Assembly: GCA_039815375.1 (NCBI GenBank)
Contig: JBCBZJ010000004.1
Coordinates: 32,001-96,000, forward strand
Length of the DNA: 64,000 nt
Direction of reading: 5' to 3'
Origin: Verrucomicrobiota bacterium
GTDB taxonomy: Bacteria > Verrucomicrobiota > Verrucomicrobiia > Opitutales > Coraliomargaritaceae
A model generated the notes under the pieces. That model ran no database searches, was not told the DNA's origin, and was given only the letters and a program-made list of their open reading frames with translations. Below are positions 17,227 to 32,115 of this stretch, piece by piece (position 1 is the first letter of the stretch; the number at the start of each line of letters is the position of its first letter). The translations under genes were made by a program, and so were the position numbers.

Positions 17227-17271
17227 TTGCACTATTTAGTATTGCACTATTTAGTATAATACTATTCAGTG
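17227..17271 (+). repeat. 15-bp tandem repeat x3 over the ATPase promoter
   Basis: ttgcactatttagta ttgcactatttagta taatactattcagtg; contains TATAAT at 17255. Confidence 0.7.
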
Positions 17272-17280
17272 CAAAAAATC

Positions 17281-18396
17281 ATGGCTAAGCAGCAGACGAA
17301 CCCTTTCCGCTTTAATCAGGTCGTTGAGAAAGAATATTTCTGCAGCCGCCCCGAAAGCGCACTCGTATCCGAACTCGTTCAGTCAGGGCAGAATGTAGCC
17401 CTGATCGGTCCTCGACGCACAGGAAAAACCTCTCTCGCCCTCGAAGTCTGCCGAAAAGCCAAACTCAAGATCGTGCATAGTGATATGATGCGAGTCGAAT
17501 CGTATGCCGATATTATCCGTCGACTGGTCGAAGCCGCCTTACGCGATAGCAAAGCCCCCAAAGTAGAGAACTTTATCAAGGCGCTGGCTCACCTGCGACC
17601 GACCTGGACCATTGACCCGATCGGCGGTGGCACTCAGCTCACCGTCACCCCATCCGCCAAGAGTACGCCGGAAAATGTAATCGACACGCTTCGGTTGATT
17701 GAAAAGCGCTGCATTGCCACGGGCAGTATCCTTTTTATCGATGAATTTCAGGACATCACTGCCCTACCCAAGCACGAAAGCTTTATCGCCCAGATGCGCT
17801 CGCAGATACAGCGCTGGAAAAAGACCGCCATCCTCTTTGCAGGCAGCGATCGGGAGAAGATGAAGGCCCTCTTCACCGATCCAGCCAGCCCCTTCTACCA
17901 ATCAGCCACCGTTCTGATGATTGAGCAGCTGGAAGAAAAGACCTTCAAGCGCTACATCCACCGCCGTTTTGAACAAAGCGGCAAAACCATTGAGCCCGAA
18001 TGCATTGAGCAAGCACTCGCACTGACCGGGCACCACCCAAACTCTGCTCAAAAACTACTGCACTTCATCTGGTCGAAAACTCCGGAAAAAGGGCATGCCG
18101 ATGTCACGATTCTCGAATCAGCCCTCAGCCTAACCATGCGCGTGGAGCAGGACGAATTCGAACGCACCCTCGATAACCTGACCTTCATGCAAGGTCGCGC
18201 CCTGAAGGCACTCGCACAGCTCGGCGGTAAAAATACAACCAGTGGCGACTTCCTCGAAGCCGCCAACATCCGCAACCCGACCTCCTCGACCAAAGCACTC
18301 ATGCGTTGCGTGCAACTCAAGATCCTCCTGAGAGACGGTTCCGCATATCGCTTCGCCAACCCCTTCTTCAAGGCCTGGCTACAACGACAGCCTTAG
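17281..18396 (+). CDS. AAA+/archaeal-type ATPase with C-terminal winged helix
   Basis: NPF...R start, [31 protein letters not shown]. Confidence 0.8.
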
Positions 18397-18490
18397 CAAC
18401 CCACGCCCACTTGTCCGGCGTCGCTAAGCGTAGACGGATCTAAATGAGATTCATGCCTTCCATTGACAGAATTTCAGTAATTCTGCAAAT

Positions 18491-18724
18491 GTGCCTGAAA
18501 AAATCGTCATTGGTCAGCGCGGCGTGCTGACACTACCCGCGAAGCTCCGGAAGCGCTATGCCCTGCAGCAGAACGACACTCTGCTCGTCGAGGAAACCCC
18601 GCAAGGCCTGCTGCTGCGCCCCTGCGTGAGCCTGCCGGTTGAGTTCTACTCGGAGGAACGCATTGCTGAGTTCAACGAAGACGATGCAGCAATCGGTGAA
18701 GCGCTGGATACATTGAACTCATAA
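18491..18724 (+). CDS. AbrB/MazE-type antitoxin
   Basis: IGQRGVLTLPAKLRKRY...GLLLRP; TTGACA-17-TTCTGC-like upstream region. Confidence 0.8.
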   Translation: MPEKIVIGQRGVLTLPAKLRKRYALQQNDTLLVEETPQGLLLRPCVSLPVEFYSEERIAEFNEDDAAIGEALDTLNS

Positions 18725-20852: not shown

Positions 20853-21662
20853 TCAATTTGCTGCGCAGGACTTCCGGCGAAAGCAGTAAAACATAAGCGT
20901 GGCCAAGCCAAGACATAATGCCGACGAACCCGGCTCAGGCACAGAGGTTGCGATCAGCTGGACATCATCGAAATCAACCTCCAGATCCGGAAACCCCAGT
21001 GCTGCGTCATCAGAGGGAATCAAATTGGAATTGACCAGACGGATACCGAGGGACTCGCCCAGACGCTCGTGAGTCGCCCCGATTGTTATACTTAAGGTTA
21101 AGCGAACAAATTCGCCTTCAATCAGCAGACCGGCCTGCGCGTTATTATCCTGGGCAATAATGTTACTTTCATCACCAGCCACAGTTTCATCCCCTGCAAG
21201 TAACTCGATACGATACTCAGGAAAACCCTCCAGATTGAAAAAATCATTATTCACTGCTGTTCCCGAATCAATATCGCCGACTTCTACGCTCAGATCGTAA
21301 CGGGTGTTGGCCTGCAAGTTATCCACCAAAGTTTGCTCAAAACCATAAGCCCCTGCTCCTCGTTGCGTGCTGTTGAACAGGATAGCCACACGCGAACCTT
21401 CAGGAGCAGTTTCGTTGAAAAATTCCGTGCCGTTTGGAGTCAAGGTCCCGGTAAAGACACCTCCATCCGGAGTAATTCCGTTTGGGTCATAAATATCCCA
21501 GCCTGCGGGTGTGCCAAATGTGAATTCATTAAAAACCGACTGGCCGGAGACATCCTCAAAACCTGCATTGGTAATCGCAAGATTGACCGAACCATTTGCA
21601 ACCGGACTTAACAAACCGCAAAGAAGACTGGTTTTTACAAAAGAGATATGAGCCTGAGACAT
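20853..21662 (-). CDS. PEP-CTERM surface protein
   Basis: Signal peptide from ATG 21662; VPEPGS + TM + RRK. Confidence 0.85.
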   Translation of the reverse strand: MSQAHISFVKTSLLCGLLSPVANGSVNLAITNAGFEDVSGQSVFNEFTFGTPAGWDIYDPNGITPDGGVFTGTLTPNGTEFFNETAPEGSRVAILFNSTQRGAGAYGFEQTLVDNLQANTRYDLSVEVGDIDSGTAVNNDFFNLEGFPEYRIELLAGDETVAGDESNIIAQDNNAQAGLLIEGEFVRLTLSITIGATHERLGESLGIRLVNSNLIPSDDAALGFPDLEVDFDDVQLIATSVPEPGSSALCLGLATLMFYCFRRKSCAAN

Positions 21663-21903
21663 GATACTTATGAAGATCGAAATAATTAATTTCGGCAATC
21701 CATTAACGGACCAAGAAACTGGATGAATGTGTATACAATTACAGCCAGTTATCACTAAATCTTTGCGAGGGGTATGCATACAAAAAGAAATCAAAATATA
21801 ACGATACGTTAATATATTTCCTAGCTCACCTTACCAGTTGACAACAGCGCCTTGCAGCATGATTACGGCAACAACTACTAATAAAACATGCTACTATTAA
21901 ATC

Positions 21904-22095
21904 GCAGAACCATGCAGCCCAAAGCGGATTTTCTTAATGAATATCCGAAGGGGGATACATGCCCTCATGGCATTGGCATGTCCGGTTCTGAAAAGGTAGC
22001 GCTTATCTCAATATAGTATTTATAGACGAGTTAACTAGAGGCACATTAACCCTTTCAAAAGGCCCGGACTGCAGATTGCAGCCGGGCCTTTTGTT
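21904..22095 (+). ncRNA. Candidate structured sRNA (three-way junction) with promoter and terminator
   Basis: cagaacc/ggttctg closing stem and two inner hairpins; TGcTACTAT extended -10 at 21889-21897. Confidence 0.55.
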
Positions 22096-22096
22096 T
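22057..22096 (+). terminator. Rho-independent terminator
   Basis: aaaaggcccggactgca-gat-tgcagccgggccttttgttt. Confidence 0.8.
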
Positions 22097-22261
22097 GCCC
22101 GAATCAAGACATTTTCCGTCTTCAAACCTGAAGATTGATCGCGTCAGGGCGGAGCTTTATTAGATTACATAAGTTATTTATTATAAATATTTTATGTAAT
22201 TTAATTGTTGACTCTTTATAAAATTCCATCCAAGTTCGGTGGCATAACTTTTTTCAAACAC

Positions 22262-22453
22262 ATGCATCTTCACATACATATTCAAATGCCCTGCGGCAGT
22301 TATCTTTGGTCACCCATTTCCCCAAACGGGTCCGATGATCTGTTAGCGCAGAGATTTGAGAATCCCATGGATTCAACACAAGCGAGGGCTTGTAGAGAGC
22401 AGGCATTTCAACCGCGTATTGCGGCCGAATGTTTAGAGAACACTAAACGATGA
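22262..22453 (+). CDS. Putative leader peptide of the tRNA array
   Basis: 63-codon ORF (MHLHIHIQMPCG...) after TTGACT-17-CAAGTT, ending 20 nt before a terminator. Confidence 0.45.
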   Translation: MHLHIHIQMPCGSYLWSPISPNGSDDLLAQRFENPMDSTQARACREQAFQPRIAAECLENTKR

Positions 22454-22473
22454 AATACCTGAAAGACTTTCTT

Positions 22474-22510
22474 AAAGCCCAAGCCGCAGACACCGCGCTT
22501 GGGCTTTTTT
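22474..22510 (+). terminator. Attenuator-type terminator upstream of the tRNA array
   Basis: aaagcccaagc...gcttgggctttttt. Confidence 0.8.
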
Positions 22511-22653
22511 GTTTCCACCAACTACAGTTTACCGGTCTCCCTTCCACCACAGCGAAGGGTCAAACGTCACGTAAATGGCGTCCAAACCACGACTCAGAAT
22601 TTGATCGTGAGAGGGGCGAAACAGCCGTCCTTGGTGGAAACAATTAACTTTAT

Positions 22654-22730
22654 GGTAGTTATCGCTTAATGGCTAAAGCACCTGACTGTGACTCAGGGGA
22701 TCTAGAGTTCGATTCTCAGTAACTACCCCA
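22654..22730 (+). tRNA. tRNA-His(GTG)
   Basis: G-1, gtagtta/taactac, C73, CCA; cctga ctGTGac tcagg. Confidence 0.85.
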
Positions 22731-22740
22731 ACCTTTCTAA

Positions 22741-22815
22741 GCCTCTGTCTTCCAACAGATAGGATAGCCGATTGTCTACCGGCAGATGTGGGTGCGATTC
22801 CCATCAGAGGCGCCA
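22741..22815 (+). tRNA. tRNA-Asp(GTC)
   Basis: gcctctg/cagaggc, G73, CCA; loop ttGTCta; T-loop TGCGATT. Confidence 0.8.
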
Positions 22816-22823
22816 TTTTTTAT

Positions 22824-22899
22824 TCGGTGGTAGTTCAATAGGTAGAACGTGGCCCTGTTAAGGCCAATGTTGCAGGATCGTAGCCTGCCCACCGAGCCA
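22824..22899 (+). tRNA. tRNA-Asn(GTT)
   Basis: tcggtgg/ccaccga, G73, CCA; tggcc ctGTTaa ggcca; T-loop ATCGTAG. Confidence 0.85.
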
Positions 22900-22905
22900 G
22901 TTTAC

Positions 22906-22981
22906 GGGAGTGTAGTGTAGAGAGTCTGCACGTCTGGTTGAAGACCAGAAAGTCATGGTGCGATTCCATGCGCTTCCGCCA
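22906..22981 (+). tRNA. tRNA-Phe(GAA)
   Basis: gggagtg/cgcttcc, G73, CCA; tctgg ttGAAga ccaga; T-loop TGCGATT. Confidence 0.75.
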
Positions 22982-22983
22982 AC

Positions 22984-23072
22984 GGACAGGTAGAGCCGTA
23001 ATTGACAGCGGCGCCGGATTGTAAACCCGGAGCATCCATGCCTTGCAGGTTTGAGCCCTGCCCTGTCCACCA
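22984..23072 (+). tRNA. tRNA-Tyr(GTA)
   Basis: ggacagg/cctgtcc, A73, CCA; loop ttGTAaa; long variable arm; T-loop TTTGAGC. Confidence 0.8.
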
Positions 23073-23082
23073 AATTTAACAA

Positions 23083-23207
23083 CGTGGAGTGGCCAAATTA
23101 GCAAGGCTCCGGTCTTGGAGACCGGGAAACTGCAGGTGGTCCGGTTCCCTTCGTGCCCGGTCATGTCGTCACTTCGTTCCTCGGAACGAGTCCTGTCTCC
23201 GCGACCA
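23083..23207 (+). tRNA. tRNA-Pro(TGG) with a 48-nt insertion in the T-loop
   Basis: C1-G72, cgtggag/ctccgcg, A73, CCA; ccggt ctTGGag accgg; T-stem gcagg/cctgt encloses tg + 23139-23186 + cgagt. Confidence 0.8.
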
Positions 23208-23213
23208 TTTTAT

Positions 23214-23290
23214 GACCAAGTAGCCCAATCGGTAGAGGCAGCTGCCTCAGAAGCAGTTCAGTGGGGGTTCGAATCCTCTCTTGGTTACCA
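23214..23290 (+). tRNA. tRNA-Leu(CAG), short variable loop
   Basis: gaccaag/cttggtt, A73, CCA; gctgc ctCAGaa gcagt; TTCGAAT. Confidence 0.8.
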
Positions 23291-23296
23291 ATTCAA

Positions 23297-23371
23297 GCCT
23301 CATTAGTTCAACAAGTAGAACAGCCGGCTTTTACCCGGTAGGCCATGGTGCAAGTCCATGATGTGGCACCA
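23297..23371 (+). tRNA. tRNA-Lys(TTT)
   Basis: gcctcat/atgtggc (1 mismatch), CCA; gccgg ctTTTac ccggt; T-loop TGCAAGT. Confidence 0.8.
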
Positions 23372-23377
23372 ACTTGA

Positions 23378-23454
23378 AGCAGAGTAGCTCAATCAGTCAG
23401 AGCGCGGGTCTCATACGCCCGAGGTTGTGGGTGCGATTCCCATCTCTGCAACCA
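23378..23454 (+). tRNA. tRNA-Met(CAT), 1:72 mismatch (initiator-like; subtype uncertain)
   Basis: agcagag/ctctgca, A73, CCA; cgggt ctCATac gcccg. Confidence 0.75.
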
Positions 23455-23459
23455 TCTTA

Positions 23460-23531
23460 GCCCGTATCGTCTAGTAGCTAGGATCTCGCGCTTTCCACGC
23501 GATGACGCCGGTGCAAATCCGGCTACGGGTT
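23460..23531 (+). tRNA. tRNA-Glu(TTC), no encoded CCA
   Basis: gcccgta/tacgggt; tcgcg ctTTCca cgcga; T-loop TGCAAAT. Confidence 0.8.
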
Positions 23532-23538
23532 ACTTTCC

Positions 23539-23609
23539 TGCGGGATAGTGTAAGGGCCGCACAGCGAACTTTGACTCCGCTAGAGAAGGTTCGAATCCTT
23601 CTCCCGCAA
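23539..23609 (+). tRNA. tRNA-Gln(TTG), no encoded CCA
   Basis: tgcggga/tcccgca; loop ctTTGac; gaagg TTCGAAT ccttc. Confidence 0.8.
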
Positions 23610-23627
23610 TTTTCCGGCGCAGCCGGA

Positions 23628-24129
23628 GACCGCTAATTATCGCTCATAGACGCTAATGGATTGAGTCGACAGGTAGATGATTCATTCGTTAATCAAATGA
23701 CACATAACACGGAATACATGGCCGATGAAGGATACGCTCTCATCGGCGCCGCATTCGAAGTCCATCGGGAACTCGGCGGTGGCCTGAGCGAAGAAATCTA
23801 CCAAGAAAGCATAGAGATCGAACTCGGCATGCGAAATATCCCATTCAAATCGAAGGACGAACTAAGGGTCTTTTACAAGCAACAGCCCCTGAACAAGCGC
23901 TATATACCGGACCTCACCGTTTCAGGCGAGATCATCACCGAACTCAAAGCCGCTAAGGAGCTCACACACGAACATCACCGGCAACTCATCAATTACATGC
24001 GAGTCACTGAAAAAGCTGTTGGATATCTCATCAACTTCGGCCCCACAGACCAACTCGAGTGGAAGCGTTTCATCCTCAGAGACTTCATTCCTATAGAGCA
24101 TCAGCGCCTATAAGCGAGAATCAGCGGTC
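23628..24129. mobile_element. Inverted-repeat-flanked GxxExxY cassette inserted in the tRNA array
   Basis: gaccgctaattatcgctcatagacgctaat (23628-23657) and atcagcgcctataagcgagaatcagcggtc (24100-24129) are 25/30 reverse-complementary. Confidence 0.65.
23697..24113 (+). CDS. GxxExxY family protein (PD-(D/E)xK nuclease fold)
   Basis: IGAAFEVHRELGGGLSEEIYQE, YIPDL, ITELKA, QLINY, GYLINFG. Confidence 0.9.
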   Translation: MTHNTEYMADEGYALIGAAFEVHRELGGGLSEEIYQESIEIELGMRNIPFKSKDELRVFYKQQPLNKRYIPDLTVSGEIITELKAAKELTHEHHRQLINYMRVTEKAVGYLINFGPTDQLEWKRFILRDFIPIEHQRL

Positions 24130-24167
24130 GCCAGCTCAGCTGGCACATACAGATCACTTTTACAAAT

Positions 24168-24244
24168 TTCCGGTCGGCGGCGCAATGCTCTCAGGCTTTC
24201 TGTCAGGTCATTGCGTTCCGCATCGACGTTCTAGACGGAAACCA
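24168..24244 (+). ncRNA. tRNA-sized rod hairpin ending in ACCA
   Basis: Nested helices ttccg/cggaa, gtcg/cgac, gcgg/ccgc, cgcaatg/cattgcg, followed by A-CCA. Confidence 0.55.
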
Positions 24245-24245
24245 T

Positions 24246-24317
24246 GCAAACATAGCCAAATGGTAAGGCATCCTGCATCACAGGAAAGATGCCGGTTCGA
24301 ATCCGGCTGATTGCACC
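24246..24317 (+). tRNA. tRNA-like gene with a 5-nt anticodon loop (identity undetermined)
   Basis: Canonical D arm (tagccaaatggtaaggc) and T arm (gccgg TTCGAAT ccggc); tcctg catca cagga. Confidence 0.7.
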
Positions 24318-24318
24318 G

Positions 24319-24392
24319 ATACTGTTAGCTCAGATAGGTAGAGCAGTTGACTGAAACTCAACTTGTCCCGGGTTCAATTCCCGGACAGTAAA
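24319..24392 (+). tRNA. Second tRNA-Phe(GAA)-like gene, 1:72 mismatch, no CCA
   Basis: tagctcagataggtagagc; gttga ctGAAac tcaac; ccggg TTCAATT cccgg. Confidence 0.7.
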
Positions 24393-24393
24393 A

Positions 24394-24467
24394 TGGATAG
24401 TAGAGCAAATGGTTAGCTCACAGGATTAAGGTTCCTGCGGATGGAGGTTCGAATCCTCCCTACCCGA
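24394..24467 (+). tRNA. tRNA-like gene with AAG anticodon (nominal Leu; possibly pseudo)
   Basis: gagc/gctc D stem; cagga ttAAGgt tcctg; ggagg TTCGAAT cctcc; A-C mismatch in the acceptor stem. Confidence 0.65.
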
Positions 24468-24792
24468 CAAAGGGCTTGGCCGCCCTCTAAAGGCCTCCAA
24501 AACCGCCCAAGGAGAGAACGGGCGACTCGTGAAAGCCAGGCACAGCCACCACATCATGCGGGTGGATGCGCCAGCAGTTTCACCACCTGCGAGGATGCGG
24601 ATACCGGATATCTCAAACCTCAGGCCTACGAAGTGAAGAACCGGCCCATCGATCTGCACCGCATGTCGACCGGATCACCGCAAACTCATTTTGAAACGCC
24701 TCAGGCGCGGAATTCCTTAAGCATCATCCCGTGGTCCGAAGCTGTGGCGGATCGTCTCATCCGAACTCTCTGCGGGCACAACTTTCATAAAG

Positions 24793-24860
24793 GGTAGCGC
24801 AGGTCCGTCCCGGACCGCACATAACGCATACCGGACGCCTGAGGGCAGGCCGTCCCTACC
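24793..24860. repeat. Inverted pair of GTAG-family REPs
   Basis: ggtagcgcaggtccgtcccggaccgcac ... cggacgcctgagggcaggccgtccctacc. Confidence 0.7.
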
Positions 24861-24918
24861 TTTCTCGCAGCGTCTATAGAGGCGACTGCACCAAACATAA
24901 CCCAAACGAATAACAATC

Positions 24919-26034
24919 ATGCTATTCTTCAAATACATCAACATCCCGTATGAGTATGTCGGTTTGAAATTCCGCGATGGCCAATTCGTTGAACTGCTCC
25001 AGTCCGGACGCCAATGGATCTTCGATCGATTCGGCCGCACTGTCGTCAACATTGTATGGCAAGGCGACCCATGGATCGAAATTTCCAAGGCCCAACTGAA
25101 GCAGCTTCGCGAAAACGACGCCGTCAACGGATATGCCGAATTCATCGATATGAAGGACAATCAACGCGCCCTCGTTTGGCTCGATGGTCGTTTCTATGGC
25201 ATCCTCAAACCAGGCCTCTACGGCTACTGGAAATCTCCAGTTAAAGTTAAAATCGAAATCGTGGAACTAGAAGACGTCCGTTTTCAACACGCACAATTCG
25301 ATATCATCACTAAAGACAAAGACGTCGCCGTCCACCTGAACATTCAGGACATCGAAGATGGCAAGGTTGGCGTCCTCTACGTCGATGGTGATTTCGTCGA
25401 GATACTCAAACCAGGTCGTTACGCATTCTGGAAGAACGTGGGCAACGTCCGCATCTATCAGTATGACCTACGTGAAAAAGTCCTCGATGTAACCGGCCAG
25501 GAAATCATGACTGCCGATAAGGTCACTCTACGACTCAATGCAGTCCTAAGCTACCGACTGGATGATGTCCGCAAGGTTGCTGAATCCGCAAAAGACGTCG
25601 AACAGGCGCTCTACCGTGAGATTCAGCTCATCATCCGCGCTGAAGTCGGCGGCCGCACGCTCGACCAGCTACTGGCAGACAAGTCCGCCGTCGCCAACGA
25701 AGCACTCAACGCAATTCGAGGGAAAGCAGCCGGCTATGGAATCGAAGTCAAAGGTCTGGGCATCCGTGATGTCATCCTACCGGGTGACATGAAGGAACTG
25801 CTCAACCAAGTCATCGAGGCCGAGAAAGCGGCCCAGGCCAACAACATCAAGCGTCGCGAAGAAACTGCTGCCATGCGCAGCCAGCTCAACTCTGCGAAAC
25901 TGATCGAGCAAAACCCAACCCTCATGCGTCTGCGTGAACTCGAGTCTGTCGAAAAAATCACTGAAAAGGCTAACCTGCAAATCTTCGTCGGAGATGGACA
26001 GGACCTGACTAAGCGAATCGTCAAACTCATCTAG
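24919..26034 (+). CDS. Slipin (SPFH/band 7) family protein
   Basis: Three N-terminal G.F...L.PG repeats; QEIMTADKVTLRLN; RDVILPG; RREETAA.RS. Confidence 0.9.
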   Translation: MLFFKYINIPYEYVGLKFRDGQFVELLQSGRQWIFDRFGRTVVNIVWQGDPWIEISKAQLKQLRENDAVNGYAEFIDMKDNQRALVWLDGRFYGILKPGLYGYWKSPVKVKIEIVELEDVRFQHAQFDIITKDKDVAVHLNIQDIEDGKVGVLYVDGDFVEILKPGRYAFWKNVGNVRIYQYDLREKVLDVTGQEIMTADKVTLRLNAVLSYRLDDVRKVAESAKDVEQALYREIQLIIRAEVGGRTLDQLLADKSAVANEALNAIRGKAAGYGIEVKGLGIRDVILPGDMKELLNQVIEAEKAAQANNIKRREETAAMRSQLNSAKLIEQNPTLMRLRELESVEKITEKANLQIFVGDGQDLTKRIVKLI

Positions 26035-26035
26035 C

Positions 26036-26068
26036 AAAGCCCCGGAGCCAGATACTCCGGGGCTTTTT
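26036..26068 (+). terminator. Rho-independent terminator
   Basis: aaagccccggag...ctccggggcttttt. Confidence 0.85.
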
Positions 26069-26229
26069 ACTTTCTTTCGCACGATAAGCAGAGGCCACTG
26101 TCCGACAACTCCCTTTGCTATTTGAAAACCGTCATCCTCTTAAGGCATCCGGGAATAAGAGGCCGGAATCAGGCTCGAACTATAGCTCTACATTAGAGAA
26201 ATCCTCAACTGTCACCTTACCGAATCTCC

Positions 26230-27477
26230 ATGATCCGCTACCGAAACGCCTTAGGGTATCTTCTTGGCATACTCTTGCTAAGCCCACTTGCACTCATAAG
26301 CCAAACAGGGCCCGACCTCAGCATCCTCCAGCGCGTCCATGAGCTAAGCCGCTACATGACGCCGCACGAACAGCTGAAAATTGCAAGGTTATCAAAGTCC
26401 GTGGCCGATGCCGAATCGGACGTTCGAACTGGTCTGGCACTCACCAATTCGGAAGGGAGCCGACTGCAAAGAGATAGGGAAACAGAATCGATTAAGGCCA
26501 AAAGACAACGCGGCGAGGAACTCATTAAAGAGGCGGATGCCGCCAAAGCAGCGGCATGGAACGAAGCCGCTATTTTGCTGATCCAAGTCGACGAACGCCT
26601 TAAAAAGCAGAGTCGCCTAGAGGCCATGAAATTCGACTTCTCCATCGAACGGACTAATTTTGAAGAGGCCCAAAATACAGCCGTCAGCACAATCCTTCAG
26701 GCTACTAAAGAAGCTGGCTACAACACGATTCTTTACGACAAAAGCTTTGTCACGACAGCGTCCGGCACTCATCCGGTAAGCCCTGAACTTCGTAAATCGA
26801 CCTATACCTCGCTGCTCTATGTCGAAGGAGATATCCCGGTCATTCACCAACCCGAATCATTAGGGTTGAGCGATGCTCCTGAAAATCGTCTGTTCCATTT
26901 CAAACACGCAGACAAGATCTACAATTCAAAGAGCGCCCTGCTCGCAATCGAAATCATTCCCTATGGCAATGCCGGCGAAGGTATTCTTCTCGCTAGAGCG
27001 CTCGACCTGAAATCGCTCCGCGTCATCAAACATAGCTTTAAGCACATTACTGGGCTAGATACTTTGCTTGAGCAGAGCACTAGTACTCTAGACGGCAGCA
27101 ACAATATCCTGACGATTCCTGAGTTTGTAAAAATCTTTGACAGCGATCAGTGGATCAACCGATTCGCCTCATTGCCGAAACCTTACCAATTTGAAATTAC
27201 AACCGAGGGCACTACCCCTACCGTTGAAGATATTCTGGCAAAGAATGCCCTCGCTCATTCGCTTTTGGAAAGGTCCACAATTATTTTAATCGATTCCAGC
27301 TTTGTTAATCGAGCCTACGGAGCCACCGAAAAGACTGTTGCTGATCTGGCCAGTGCCTCCTTTACCTTAAAAGGCGGTATGGGGATGTATGAAATAGTCG
27401 CTCAGGCCCGAAACAATCCCCGTATGATCGAGATTGGCACCATTACACTTGAAGGAAATAAAAACGACCAAAGTTGA
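26230..27477 (+). CDS. Secreted hypothetical protein with N-terminal coiled coil
   Basis: 415-aa ORF with signal peptide. Confidence 0.7.
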   Translation: MIRYRNALGYLLGILLLSPLALISQTGPDLSILQRVHELSRYMTPHEQLKIARLSKSVADAESDVRTGLALTNSEGSRLQRDRETESIKAKRQRGEELIKEADAAKAAAWNEAAILLIQVDERLKKQSRLEAMKFDFSIERTNFEEAQNTAVSTILQATKEAGYNTILYDKSFVTTASGTHPVSPELRKSTYTSLLYVEGDIPVIHQPESLGLSDAPENRLFHFKHADKIYNSKSALLAIEIIPYGNAGEGILLARALDLKSLRVIKHSFKHITGLDTLLEQSTSTLDGSNNILTIPEFVKIFDSDQWINRFASLPKPYQFEITTEGTTPTVEDILAKNALAHSLLERSTIILIDSSFVNRAYGATEKTVADLASASFTLKGGMGMYEIVAQARNNPRMIEIGTITLEGNKNDQS

Positions 27478-27541
27478 TTCGATCAGGATTACAGTCAGCG
27501 CGGTCTGACGTAAGCGGATCCTTAAACACTTTCATTTCTTG

Positions 27542-27579
27542 AAGCCCCGGAGCATCTCACTCCGGGGCTTTTTTATTTT
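27542..27579 (+). terminator. Terminator/possible attenuator before the rtcB operon
   Basis: aagccccggag...ctccggggcttttttatttt. Confidence 0.8.
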
Positions 27580-27625
27580 CCAACACACACACAAATCAAA
27601 TCAACCGCCTTTAGAGGCAACCACT

Positions 27626-28612
27626 ATGAACGAACAAGAAATCCAATTCATTTGCGGCTGCCTATCGGAAGGCCGCACCAAATACTATACCTTCAAAGAC
27701 CACTACGTCTTTCAAATCCTCTCCTGGAAGCTCGGAAGCGGCAGCATCAAGGTGCGCGAGATTAAGACGCATCCGACTTTTGCCCGCTATGCCAACCGGC
27801 CCGCCTTCAGGGAATTCCTGCAACGTTTGCCAAATGGCATCATCGATCAGGAAAGCCTGCAAAGCTACTGGCCAACACACGATTCAATCCAAGCCTTCCG
27901 GCTTACACTGGATCGCTGGGGTGATTTTGATTCCGGCAATGATGACTGGAACCAAACCTCGCGCCGCGGCTACAATCTGGTGCTTCAACTCAACTTCCCT
28001 ATCGCCAACAGCCGTGAATATCGGGAACTCGACGAAGAAGACGATAACCCGTTCTACTTCGGTTCCAAATGCCATCCATCCCGTATTGGAGAAATCACGA
28101 CCATGTCCTGGGCCCGACTCGACATCAACCTCGATGAAGGCACCGCTCTCATTGAAGAGATTCAGACCGACTGGCTACGTGACGCCCGCGAAGAGCGTGA
28201 ACGAATCGAACGTCGTCTCAAAGACCAGAAGCTTTCAATCAACGACACCTGGAGTGGCATCAAAGTATGGAAAATTCTCCGCTACTTCGACCGACACATC
28301 CAGCCACTGATAAAGCTGTGGGACGAAGCCACTCTGGAAGCTGCCCTCTGGTTCCTTCGTGAAGAGCTCGGCATGGAGCAAGTGTATTACCACACTTGGA
28401 ATACAGGCCTCTGGTTTAAGCGCCTTGAGCCTAACTTTGCTCCACCCCGCTCGCTCTACACCAAGCTACCACAGCGCTTCGGCTTCGACTGCGTCGAGCA
28501 GGGCCCGGAGTTCATCCTCGAACAACCGGAAAACCGCCGACGCCTCAAAAGTAAACGCAACAAACATGAATCGCCAAAATGGTGGTTCATGAATTTAAAA
28601 CAAACCGCATAA
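27626..28612 (+). CDS. Hypothetical protein (QTSRRGYNLVLQLNF, EEIQTDW, PPRSLY motifs) coupled to rtcB
   Basis: ATG after a GAGG RBS; ends 9 nt before rtcB. Confidence 0.8.
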   Translation: MNEQEIQFICGCLSEGRTKYYTFKDHYVFQILSWKLGSGSIKVREIKTHPTFARYANRPAFREFLQRLPNGIIDQESLQSYWPTHDSIQAFRLTLDRWGDFDSGNDDWNQTSRRGYNLVLQLNFPIANSREYRELDEEDDNPFYFGSKCHPSRIGEITTMSWARLDINLDEGTALIEEIQTDWLRDAREERERIERRLKDQKLSINDTWSGIKVWKILRYFDRHIQPLIKLWDEATLEAALWFLREELGMEQVYYHTWNTGLWFKRLEPNFAPPRSLYTKLPQRFGFDCVEQGPEFILEQPENRRRLKSKRNKHESPKWWFMNLKQTA

Positions 28613-28621
28613 GGAAATACA

Positions 28622-30019
28622 ATGAACGCAGAAGACCTACGTCGTTGGGGTATCCCTCCAGGAGATGCCATGCGACTCACATTCCAAATCATCAAACGGC
28701 TATTTAATGAATCGATTCCAGCCGAGACTGTTCGCTCGCAGCTACTCGCAGTGATTCATCAACCATCCGCGCACCTCAACGATTCGCATTGGAGTGAACT
28801 CGCTCAGATGCTTGATGAGATCACTATCTTCGAGCCACGTGCCGAGCCAGCACCTTACCATCAATGGGGTAAGGATCTTGATGCAAACGCCATCGAACAA
28901 ATGAGGAATGCCTGCCAACTGCCCATCGCAGTGGCTGGAGCACTCATGCCTGATGCTCACCTAGGATACGGACTACCAATCGGAGGCGTCCTCGCAACAA
29001 AAGGCGCAGTCATCCCATACGCAGTCGGTGTCGACATCGCCTGTCGTATGAAGCTGACCGTGCTCGACCTGCCGCTCAAGCACTTCGAGAAACGCACCAA
29101 GATCGACCGCTTGAAAAAAGCGATCGAAGCTGAAACGCGTTTCGGAACCGGTGCCCGTTTCCAGAAAGATGCCATCCGCAACCACAAAGTTATGGATGCC
29201 GACTGGTCGATCACCAAGGTGACGGCCGCAGCTAAGGACAAAGCTTGGACACAACTCGGAACTTCGGGAAGCGGCAACCACTTCGTCGAGTTCGGTATCT
29301 TCGAAATCGAGACAGATGAACTAGGGCTGGGACCTGGCCAGTACATCGCCCTCCTCTCCCATAGCGGAAGCCGAGGCGCAGGTGCAGCCGTTGCCGGGCA
29401 CTACTCGAAGCTCGCCCGCGAAGCTCATCCAGAGCTACCGGACAAGCTGAAGCATCTGGCATGGCTCGAAATGAATAAGGAGTCCGGTCAAGCATACTGG
29501 GCAGCGATGAACCTCATGGGCGATTACGCGGCAGCCAACCATAGCTGTATCCATAAACATATCGCACGTCACCTCGGAGCCGAAGTCCTCCTCGATGTTG
29601 AGAACCACCATAACTTCGCGTGGAAGGAAGAGCACCTCGGCGACGAGCTCATCGTTCATCGCAAAGGGGCAACACCAGCGGGTAAAGGCATAATGGGAAT
29701 CATCCCTGGATCGATGGCTAGCCCAGCCTACCTCGTCCGAGGAAAAGGCAAGGCAGAGTCCCTCAACTCCGCATCTCACGGAGCTGGACGTGTCATGTCC
29801 CGCCGAAAGGCAGCTGAACACCTTCGCTGGGAAGATGCGAACAAGCTCCTTAAAGCACAGCAAGTTGAGCTCATCTCGGCTGGCCTCGATGAAGTCCCGG
29901 CCGTCTACAAAGATATCGAAACCGTGATGGACGCCCAAAGCGACCTCGTCGAAAAACTCGGCCGCTTTCATCCACGACTCGTCAAGATGGCACCTCCGGG
30001 AGAACGTCCTGAAGATTAA
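28622..30019 (+). CDS. rtcB: RNA 3'-phosphate/5'-OH ligase RtcB
   Basis: MPDAHLGYGLPIG, GVDIACR, GSGNHF, HSGSRG, NHHN, HRKGAT, PGSM, SHGAGR, DE.P..YK. Confidence 0.95.
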   Translation: MNAEDLRRWGIPPGDAMRLTFQIIKRLFNESIPAETVRSQLLAVIHQPSAHLNDSHWSELAQMLDEITIFEPRAEPAPYHQWGKDLDANAIEQMRNACQLPIAVAGALMPDAHLGYGLPIGGVLATKGAVIPYAVGVDIACRMKLTVLDLPLKHFEKRTKIDRLKKAIEAETRFGTGARFQKDAIRNHKVMDADWSITKVTAAAKDKAWTQLGTSGSGNHFVEFGIFEIETDELGLGPGQYIALLSHSGSRGAGAAVAGHYSKLAREAHPELPDKLKHLAWLEMNKESGQAYWAAMNLMGDYAAANHSCIHKHIARHLGAEVLLDVENHHNFAWKEEHLGDELIVHRKGATPAGKGIMGIIPGSMASPAYLVRGKGKAESLNSASHGAGRVMSRRKAAEHLRWEDANKLLKAQQVELISAGLDEVPAVYKDIETVMDAQSDLVEKLGRFHPRLVKMAPPGERPED

Positions 30020-30021
30020 CG

Positions 30022-30054
30022 AAAAGCGCCCTCAACAATGGGGGCGCTTTTTTT
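30022..30054 (+). terminator. Rho-independent terminator
   Basis: aaaagcgccctca...tgggggcgcttttttt. Confidence 0.85.
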
Positions 30055-31059: not shown

Positions 31060-32115
31060 ATGAATCACTGCCTTGCTTTATGCTTCCTTTTTATCGGTGC
31101 ACTTCTTTCAGCCGCGCCAACCATTGAAATTCTTGCCGAGCTGAACTATCGACGTCCGGGCAACCCCGCAGTGACGCCGGACGGCACCGTGTATTTTTCA
31201 ATGCACCCATTCGATGATCCCCATCACAAGGTGATGAAGCTCAATGAAGACGGCTCCTTCGAGCCCTTCCCTTACGAAGGCATCTCGAAGAACTTCTCTG
31301 CGGTGATCGGCATCCAGAGCGACAGCAAAGGTCGTGTTTGGATTTTGGACATGGGAAGCGAAGAGAAATCCCCGAAGCTTTTCGCTTGGGACACTGCATC
31401 CAACAGTCTCCACAAAGTGATCTACATCCCAAATGAAGCACTCGTTGCGAACTCTTTCCTCCAGGACTTCGCAATCGATGAAAAGCACGGCATGATCTAC
31501 ATCGCGGATATGTCCCGCAGTGGGATGATCGATGCCAGCGAACCGGCCATCATAGTCGTCGACCTGGAGCACGGTTTCTCACGTCGCGTATTGCAATCCT
31601 TCTCTGCGTTCCAACCCAAGTTTGGCGAGGTCATGATCACCGAGGGCACGCCCACGACATTTACCGATGAGGCAGGCACACACCATCCGCTGGAGATCGG
31701 ACTCAACCCCATCGCAATCGATGCGCAAAACGAGTGGGTCTATTTCTCAACCATCCATCCCGGCTCGCTGTTTCGCATTCCGGCCGCAACCCTCGCCAAC
31801 CCACATCTCCGCATGACCCCACTGATTGATTCGATCGAGCTCTTTGCCCCCAAACCCACCAGTGACGGCATCGCAGCCGATGGAAAAGGCCGCGTCTTTA
31901 TTACCAATCTGGAGGACAATGCCATCAGCATCGCAGACGAATCCGGCACCCGAATCTGGGTCCAGGACGATCGCTTTGTTTGGCCCGACGGCGTCTATGT
32001 CGCACCCGACGGCAGCGTCGTCGCAACAATCAACCAACTCAACCGGGCCGCACCCTTCAACAAAGGCAAGGACGGCGCTAAGCCGCCTTACTACATCGTG
32101 CGCATCAGCGAATAA
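31060..32115 (+). CDS. Secreted beta-propeller, major royal jelly/yellow-like
   Basis: Signal peptide; RPGN, WILDMG, SFLQD, SDGI, WPDG. Confidence 0.8.
   Translation: MNHCLALCFLFIGALLSAAPTIEILAELNYRRPGNPAVTPDGTVYFSMHPFDDPHHKVMKLNEDGSFEPFPYEGISKNFSAVIGIQSDSKGRVWILDMGSEEKSPKLFAWDTASNSLHKVIYIPNEALVANSFLQDFAIDEKHGMIYIADMSRSGMIDASEPAIIVVDLEHGFSRRVLQSFSAFQPKFGEVMITEGTPTTFTDEAGTHHPLEIGLNPIAIDAQNEWVYFSTIHPGSLFRIPAATLANPHLRMTPLIDSIELFAPKPTSDGIAADGKGRVFITNLEDNAISIADESGTRIWVQDDRFVWPDGVYVAPDGSVVATINQLNRAAPFNKGKDGAKPPYYIVRISE

Follow-up and report, generated by a model that had tools for sequence, protein, structure and literature searches.

tRNA gene clusters defined as L-arrays have been listed for phyla that include Verrucomicrobia, and in cyanobacteria rtcB lies near such arrays and co-induction has been shown (PMC8421152). 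In Anabaena the trn array, rtcB and a slipin gene are induced by translation stress (PMC8421152; PMC10272220), and TrcR represses the array together with rtcB and the slipin gene alr0740 (PMC10272220). A Band-7/b7a-tRNA/RtcB neighbourhood was predicted by Burroughs and Aravind in 2016, as cited in 10.1101/312249; an SPFH gene is found in the rtc locus of Pseudomonas aeruginosa PA14 (PMC13086221); and leader-peptide attenuation has been proposed for the RtcB-like armZ of P. aeruginosa, with PA5471.1 as the leader of armZ-PA5470 (PMC12057347). Here we describe a locus in a 64,000-nucleotide stretch from an Opitutales member of the Verrucomicrobiota (the window; positions 32,001 to 96,000 of contig JBCBZJ010000004.1, assembly GCA_039815375.1), a single strand of which carries 11 redundant tRNA genes, three tRNA mimics, three structured RNAs (RNA-A, RNA-B and RNA-C), a slipin gene, the gene of an EEIQxDW protein and rtcB. 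One contig from a public run, possibly the DNA's own source, spans the whole stretch. The genes are preceded by two leaders, each with an upstream open reading frame (uORF) and a terminator. With a probability of roughly 0.6, we propose that the operon would be silent by default and that ribosomes stalling in the uORFs would open the attenuators, releasing spare tRNAs, mimics and slipin.

The leader region, up to and including RNA-A, is laid out as follows (aa, amino acids; nt, nucleotides):
21838..22097, plus strand: leader 0, with a TTGACA box at 21838, uORF0 at 21888-22016 (42 aa) and an intrinsic terminator at about 22057-22097
22148..22154, no strand assigned: GCGGAGC box, conserved, a candidate DNA site or RNA element, 59-70 nt before the second promoter in 9/10 tandem-leader loci
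22208..22236, plus strand: predicted promoter P1, TTGACT and CAAGTT 17 nt apart, recognised by conservation
22262..22453, plus strand: uORF1, 63 aa, with a predicted antiterminator strand inside it at about 22386-22399
22450..22647, plus strand: 65-codon frame that begins with a second ATG at the uORF1 stop and runs through terminator T1
22474..22511, plus strand: attenuator terminator T1, about -18 kcal/mol, with a U-tract
22508..22645, plus strand: RNA-A, absent from Rfam; it folds into several branches, its helices covary and one hairpin is nearly invariant

Among the 13 loci of this kind that have upstream DNA, ten carry tandem units of promoter, uORF and terminator and three carry one, 23 leaders in total, the layout of leader 0 being repeated in 10/13. 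The leader adjoining RNA-A was located by its position and not by its ORF, and the upstream leaders were chosen by eye. All share a geometry, with a uORF of 39-64 codons whose ATG follows the TTGAC box by 42-54 nt and whose stop precedes the terminator stem by 22-43 nt; an ORF of such geometry appears in 1.0-4.8% of shuffles per leader. The PA5471.1 leader peptide of armZ presumably has 13 aa. Indels in uORF1 among relatives are in-frame over most of its length, and its peptide drifts and is poorly conserved, so the uORF would serve as a general translation gauge and not as a sensor of a single amino acid.

When a ribosome was placed at codon 5 in the folding model, the 5' arm of the terminator gained a median of 9.5 kcal/mol from upstream pairing in the leaders, against 3.9 in 78 ordinary terminators from the same genome; once the ribosome stood at the stop, the leaders fell to 4.6 and the controls stayed at 3.9. 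Moving the ribosome to the stop lowered the gain by over 2 kcal/mol in 21/23 leaders and 9/78 control terminators, and the antiterminator partner strand lies 10-21 codons before the uORF stop in 20/23 leaders. A uORF ahead of an intrinsic terminator that overlaps an alternative helix, as expected of an attenuator, is thus what prediction and comparison together give. An earlier note on this DNA had reported a leader ORF with its terminator and had suggested ribosome-coupled control. The suggestion is backed by the leader geometry and the antiterminator folding across relatives, and the leader is present, though a second one upstream, at 21838-22097 and outside the start of the block as then drawn, had been overlooked. 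A strict genome-wide scan for the promoter-uORF-terminator layout recovered a single leader and missed leader 0, and is therefore insensitive. Tandem leaders are also carried by Cerasicoccus frondis and C. maritimus (loci L018 and L019). As a side observation, a lax, uncontrolled scan outside Opitutales found a small ORF and terminator, sometimes in tandem, before slipin-linked tRNA arrays in 8/10 loci with upstream DNA (L036, L039, L123, L128, L133, L136, L140 and L153), and the RtcR-linked array L169 has no such ORF and terminator.

The comparison covers 14 distinct RNA-A loci, namely the window, G017, G187, G354, L018, L019, L103, two in G766, and G815, G810, G786, G762 and G817. L012 and L017, and likewise L020 and L192, are the same DNA, each pair being counted once; L103 breaks off inside its slipin gene and is covered only up to that point; G048, with a 50% identical slipin, three tRNA-like calls and no RNA-A match, was left out. 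What these Opitutales loci conserve is a core made of the leader or leaders, RNA-A and slipin, inside which the array and mimics usually lie. The slipin gene is present in all 14, RNA-B and RNA-C in 12 each and at least seven tRNA calls in 11 (7-17 calls), while the EEIQxDW gene is found in six, rtcB in three, a GxxExxY gene in two and a 415-aa protein gene in one. In G187 the order leaders, array, slipin, EEIQxDW gene, rtcB is uninterrupted. In the earlier note RtcB was part of a system inferred to replace and repair damaged tRNA; it is not the core, however, with linkage in 3/14 loci, a position beyond the post-slipin terminator, and no RtcB family member found in six of ten carrier genomes searched, all of them drafts. 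The proposed check of synteny across Opitutales accordingly came out divided, the linkage of leader, RNA-A and slipin being kept and that of array and rtcB mostly not.

The mechanism that we favour has two ribosome-dependent transcription attenuators holding the tRNA-array, mimic and slipin operon silent. A ribosome that traverses the whole uORF would break the helix between the last third of the uORF and the 5' arm of the terminator, and with that antiterminator helix disrupted the terminator would form. A ribosome stuck in the first two-thirds, through a drug or through a cleaved or uncharged tRNA, would leave the antiterminator intact, and RNA polymerase would continue. The read-through RNA would then yield spare tRNAs, mimics that may act as nuclease decoys or ligase cofactors, and slipin; the predicted GNAT-fold EEIQxDW protein and RtcB would be optional repair genes behind the slipin terminator, reached by partial read-through.

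Several points weigh against this mechanism. In 3/23 leaders the unblocked partner lies outside the distal uORF, and 2/23, both of them leader 0, lack the 2 kcal/mol drop. An earlier probability read-out had a ribosome at the stop barely lowering the pairing for G017, G187 and G354; the folding model is an equilibrium one with a crude 30-nt ribosome footprint, and the 23 leaders, being related, are not independent. A short local hairpin could mask the antiterminator strand without any ribosome, and the second ATG, placed at -4 to +8 nt relative to the uORF1 stop in 10/11 leader-1 loci, could reverse the logic of the leader. In G762, where rtcB is unlinked, that gene lacks a leader of this kind, and the few loci with linked rtcB count here as well. 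Finally, the arrays decay, two loci having no tRNA and one mimics only.

The RNA genes and the slipin gene that follow RNA-A are these:
22655..23609, plus strand: tRNA array of 11 genes, from ARAGORN, Rfam and reading of the sequence: His GTG, Asp GTC (degenerate), Asn GTT, Phe GAA, Tyr GTA, Pro TGG (interrupted), Leu CAG (short variable arm), Lys TTT, Met CAT, Glu TTC and Gln TTG
23139..23186, plus strand: 48-nt dispersed repeat inside the T-loop of tRNA-Pro
23621..24136, plus strand: GxxExxY unit, a PD-(D/E)XK gene at 23697-24113 flanked by 38-nt inverted repeats; an accessory insert
24167..24245, plus strand: RNA-B, a long bulged hairpin that ends in CCA in this genome, with compensatory changes; 12/14 loci
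24246..24468, plus strand: three tRNA mimics, called by ARAGORN as Asp ATC, Phe GAA and Leu AAG, without encoded CCA here
24495..24785, plus strand: RNA-C, a pre-slipin structured RNA with the widespread CAGCA...GGATACCG core
24794..24860, no strand assigned: REP-like palindromic repeat with many genome copies (44 BLAST matches)
24919..26034, plus strand: slipin (SPFH/Band-7), 371 aa, the core gene, downstream of RNA-A in 14/14 loci
26036..26075, plus strand: strong terminator after slipin, a terminator-like hairpin being found at this place in 12/13 loci

The earlier count of 14 tRNA or tRNA-like genes stands, with 11 from ARAGORN, 12 from Rfam at gathering score, and Tyr (22984-23072) and Pro (23083-23207) below the Rfam gathering score but readable as tRNAs in the sequence; the last three of the 14 are better taken as mimics. 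ARAGORN calls Pro(TGG) once the 48-nt T-loop insert has been removed. Every one of the 11 array anticodons has a copy elsewhere in the genome, CCA is encoded by 9/11 array genes, and 11 of the genome's 50 ARAGORN calls lie in the block, the others being singles or pairs. The identity of tRNA-Leu(CAG) at 23214-23290, with its short variable arm, is unusual. The 48-nt repeat has nine more BLAST matches in the genome, at least one of them probably due to chance, and also occurs in T-loops of L017, where tRNA-Pro and tRNA-Leu of G187 (L017:6820-7140) carry it at the same T-loop position as tRNA-Pro here; this suggests a small element that targets sequence resembling a tRNA T-loop. That the insert in tRNA-Pro is an RtcB-spliced intron was considered and set aside as the default, since similar repeats occur outside tRNAs. 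The GxxExxY gene (TIGR04256) had been listed as a component of the system; it lies within the array in 2/14 loci, between its inverted repeats, and has two paralogues elsewhere, and it was rejected as the system's nuclease. Its flanking repeats also stand without the gene elsewhere in the genome and in the L001/L017 arrays, so that gene and repeats resemble a small mobile unit.

The claim of three structured RNAs other than tRNAs holds: RNA-A, RNA-B and RNA-C are kept in relatives, have folding z-scores of -3.9, -2.1 and -2.4, respectively, and gave no Rfam match at E<=10. RNA-B shows two-sided changes at 8/19 pairs. It was tried as a Y RNA and rejected, with no TROVE gene and an Rfam score far below gathering (for a YrlA-type RNA, a best score of 22 bits against a gathering score of 69). 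The RNA-C core is found far beyond Opitutales. The three genes after RNA-B we read as tRNA mimics, judging from their sequences, which encode no CCA here and whose anticodon loops vary freely: the first has 11 different anticodon loops in 11 loci, the second has seven loop types in 11 loci on a well conserved body, and the third has two body types.

These hypervariable loops are one reason to consider that the mimics, RNA-B, RNA-C and slipin form a ribonucleoprotein serving as a decoy or defence when phages or rivals attack with anticodon nucleases, the tRNAs and RtcB being passengers and the leaders sensing toxin attack specifically. G766 retains mimics without an array, and the GGATACC of the RNA-C core stands at most 700 nt upstream of slipin in 33/58 metagenome loci with enough DNA, with a flanking motif that they share; however, tRNA calls are retained in most loci (11/14, as above), most array genes encode CCA, and mimics are missing from two loci that retain leader, RNA-A and slipin. 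We consider this unlikely, and it has the attenuator step in common with the mechanism proposed above.

Somewhat less likely again is a reversal of the leader logic, in which a ribosome finishing uORF1 would re-initiate at the second ATG and cover the 5' arm of T1, so that the array would be read during active or resuming translation. The conserved position of this ATG fits, as do frames of 57-70 codons through T1 in 6/6 loci listed. Against it, ten leader-0 units and two single leaders share the common geometry and none has a second ATG; the second-ATG frame shifts inside RNA-A in several loci; and base pairing is predicted for the ATG region in the window, G187 and G354.

Returning to ribosome-controlled attenuation, how far it would reach depends on what lies behind the slipin gene:
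26230..27477, plus strand: gene of a 415-aa protein, predicted to be secreted, with a weak CsgG/FlgO-like lead; an interloper
27626..28612, plus strand: EEIQxDW protein, 328 aa, with a predicted divergent GNAT fold
28622..30019, plus strand: RtcB RNA ligase, 465 aa, with the motifs DIAC, GNHF, HSGSRG, HHN, HRKGA and HGAGR
30023..30054, plus strand: closing terminator-like hairpin with a U-tract, seen in the sequence

The 3' end of the slipin gene and its terminator are duplicated after the 415-aa gene (27505-27573, 74% identical), about 55 nt before the start of the EEIQxDW gene. Relatives of the 415-aa gene occur in 14/40 other genomes of the family, and in G187 on another contig. The block is indeed co-oriented, as had been noted, but with this previously unlisted ORF and two 12-pair terminators (26036 and 27541) inside it is not a simple operon, and with one terminator after slipin and its second copy ahead of the EEIQxDW gene, rtcB would need read-through. 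The slipin gene lies two genes upstream of rtcB here and one gene upstream in G187 and G766. Among 80 metagenome slipin loci, 19 have at least four tRNAs, 14 have rtcB and 10 have rtcR. Longer slipins (about 505 aa) whose N-terminal region is duplicated were seen at L013:9177-10694 and in L018, L019, L195 and L197. A 260-aa protein without a Pfam match replaces the EEIQxDW protein between slipin and rtcB at L193:3922-4704, and in both Cerasicoccus loci an HNH gene stands between slipin and the EEIQxDW gene (L018:9536-9898), recalling the HNH genes beside cyanobacterial arrays.

The rtcB at 28622..30019 is the sole one of the genome, and we take its six motifs to have a catalytic role. Family matches confirm it, as they do GxxExxY and the Band_7 slipin, and the EEIQxDW protein, called uncharacterised in the earlier note, has no Pfam or NCBIfam match. 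Its residues E177, E178, Q180 and D182 are invariant. Its family comprises 266 matches and has no family name; no convincing match was obtained in Pfam, PHROG, PDB sequences or named Atlas entries. The structure model has a pLDDT (predicted local distance difference test) score of 94, and its best structural match is a middling one (Z 8.0, root-mean-square deviation 3.4 A, 123 aligned residues), the top 50 being nearly all of GNAT type, with Foldseek E>=0.11 against PDB; a viral Foldseek search with the model gave one match at E<=0.001 and weak ones to large polyvalent phage proteins and GNATs. In the best 80 of 396 EEIQxDW loci, RtcB lies within 10 kb in 39, slipin in 18 and at least four tRNAs in 10. 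Close neighbours, counted after clustering with one or two representatives of each cluster scanned, include PrfH-type genes in 15 loci, RlaP in four, and CCA-adding enzyme, TROVE and Hen1 in two each; loci L021-L096, from several phyla, have the gene beside RtcB, PrfH, RlaP, CCA-adding enzyme, TROVE and Hen1. The EEIQxDW proteins are predicted to be a nameless GNAT-fold family linked to RNA repair, and they may carry out acyl transfer in RNA or ribosome repair.

RNA-A begins inside the U-tract of T1. Two-sided changes were found at 11/25 named pairs, a count reached by none of 500 shuffles and by no slid control, in a sample of eight related rows from which the structure itself was partly derived; its most conserved hairpin is invariant. 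Model R1 of RNA-A found no match in 81 other loci, nor did pattern scans of metagenome and viral contigs; a pattern search of 401 genomes gave three true matches and two chance ones inside coding DNA. A likeness to the twister ribozyme was unsupported by Rfam, and RNA-A as a ribozyme was dropped. RNA-A persists in two loci without any tRNA. The need for read-through to rtcB is what led to the idea that RNA-A aids antitermination: as a cis element it would let RNA polymerase pass both the untranslated array and the terminator after slipin and so reach the GNAT and RtcB genes, and as the first read-through product it would be kept even where all tRNAs have been lost. A complete protein-free tRNA-rescue circuit, made of two uORF gauges, RNA-A antitermination and an acyl-transfer repair step by the EEIQxDW protein, is on the whole doubtful, and we offer it tentatively.

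RNA-A is found in 8/151 sampled Opitutales genomes and slipin orthologues in 8/401 genomes of the phylum. In G766 and G786, which belong to other families, slipin identity is 85% and PNPase identity 71% and 69%, whereas in G187, of the same family, slipin is 81% and PNPase 90% identical; this discordance indicates transfer, and the locus, on these sequence comparisons, is patchy and has likely moved horizontally. That it is a mostly silent mobile relic or insertion hot spot, with ordinary terminators and chance ORFs for leaders and an incidental rtcB link, is the least probable explanation we weighed, for although the rarity of the locus, the repeat insertions that disrupt tRNAs, the inserted GxxExxY and 415-aa genes and a truncated-looking slipin at one G766 locus would suit it, the leader geometry is held across five families despite sequence turnover, RNA-A covaries, and across phyla EEIQxDW genes are linked to genes of RNA repair.

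Two further neighbours lie upstream: an AAA ATPase gene with a MazE/AbrB-type antitoxin gene (17269-18724), 3-4 kb away, and, on the minus strand and divergent from leader 0, a gene for a PEP-CTERM protein with an HpiC1-like domain (20853-21659).

The earlier note knew of no description of the layout. Array-rtcB linkage and Band-7/tRNA-like/RtcB neighbourhoods have in fact been published; in the literature searched, with most subscription papers outside its coverage, no attenuator-controlled tRNA array, no Opitutales array and no RNA-A were found. In the sources cited, switching of long tRNA arrays is known only for cyanobacteria, by a protein repressor. A self-contained RNA switch, to which this locus points, could move together with its array and would need no regulator in a new host; the spread of such arrays would then be easier to understand. 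The locus also offers 23 natural leaders, an RNA motif outside Rfam, mimics with free anticodons, and a family of predicted GNAT fold that is linked with RtcB and PrfH in many phyla.

Of the systems described, the L-arrays and the Anabaena trn array come closest, being, like the array here, supernumerary, patchy and likely transferred (PMC8421152); here the genes are clustered among otherwise dispersed tRNAs, with redundant anticodons and a patchy distribution. Some cyanobacterial arrays have rtcB and an HNH gene as neighbours, and an HNH gene follows slipin in L018. The likeness to the Anabaena stress regulon, which the earlier note had pointed out, is borne out by the joint TrcR repression of alr0740, rtcB and the trn array (PMC10272220); slipin and rtcB are co-regulated with the array there and lie near it here. 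As those sources describe it, Anabaena control is by a DNA-binding RHH repressor on promoter repeats, whereas the present locus has a pair of leaders, each with a uORF and a terminator; its array, unlike trn, is short (11 genes and three mimics) and has three embedded structured RNAs, and induction, which has been shown for Anabaena, is here a prediction. The Band-7/b7a-tRNA/RtcB neighbourhood also places a tRNA-like RNA by a Band-7 gene by RtcB (10.1101/312249), a likeness to b7a-tRNA that is by description only, and differs in that our locus has three mimics, RNA-A, RNA-B and RNA-C, a true array and an optional RtcB. The RtcR-controlled rtc operons (rsr-yrlBA-rtcBA; PA14) likewise combine RtcB, a non-coding RNA and an SPFH gene (PMC13086221), and locus L169 joins rtcR, a 14-tRNA array, slipin, rtcA and rtcB. 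Those operons have RtcR, RtcA and Ro60, none of which was found in this genome: RtcR (PF06956) was not found in 5/5 carrier genomes including this one, with a control detected in E. coli, nor was Ro60/TROVE (PF05731) in 5/5 genomes including this one, with controls positive in 2/14, and a single RtcA query gave no tblastn match in this genome. The earlier remark that neither RtcR nor Ro60 is adjacent thus extends to the genome as a whole. For armZ, too, stalling in the PA5471.1 leader is proposed to open a terminator upstream of the RtcB-family gene (PMC12057347), though there a single short leader precedes protein genes, and here two long tandem leaders with their own promoters precede a tRNA array. 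Set beside these systems, the cargo of the locus is of a known kind; what is new is the control by long uORFs in tandem, together with RNA-A and the repair-linked family of predicted GNAT fold.

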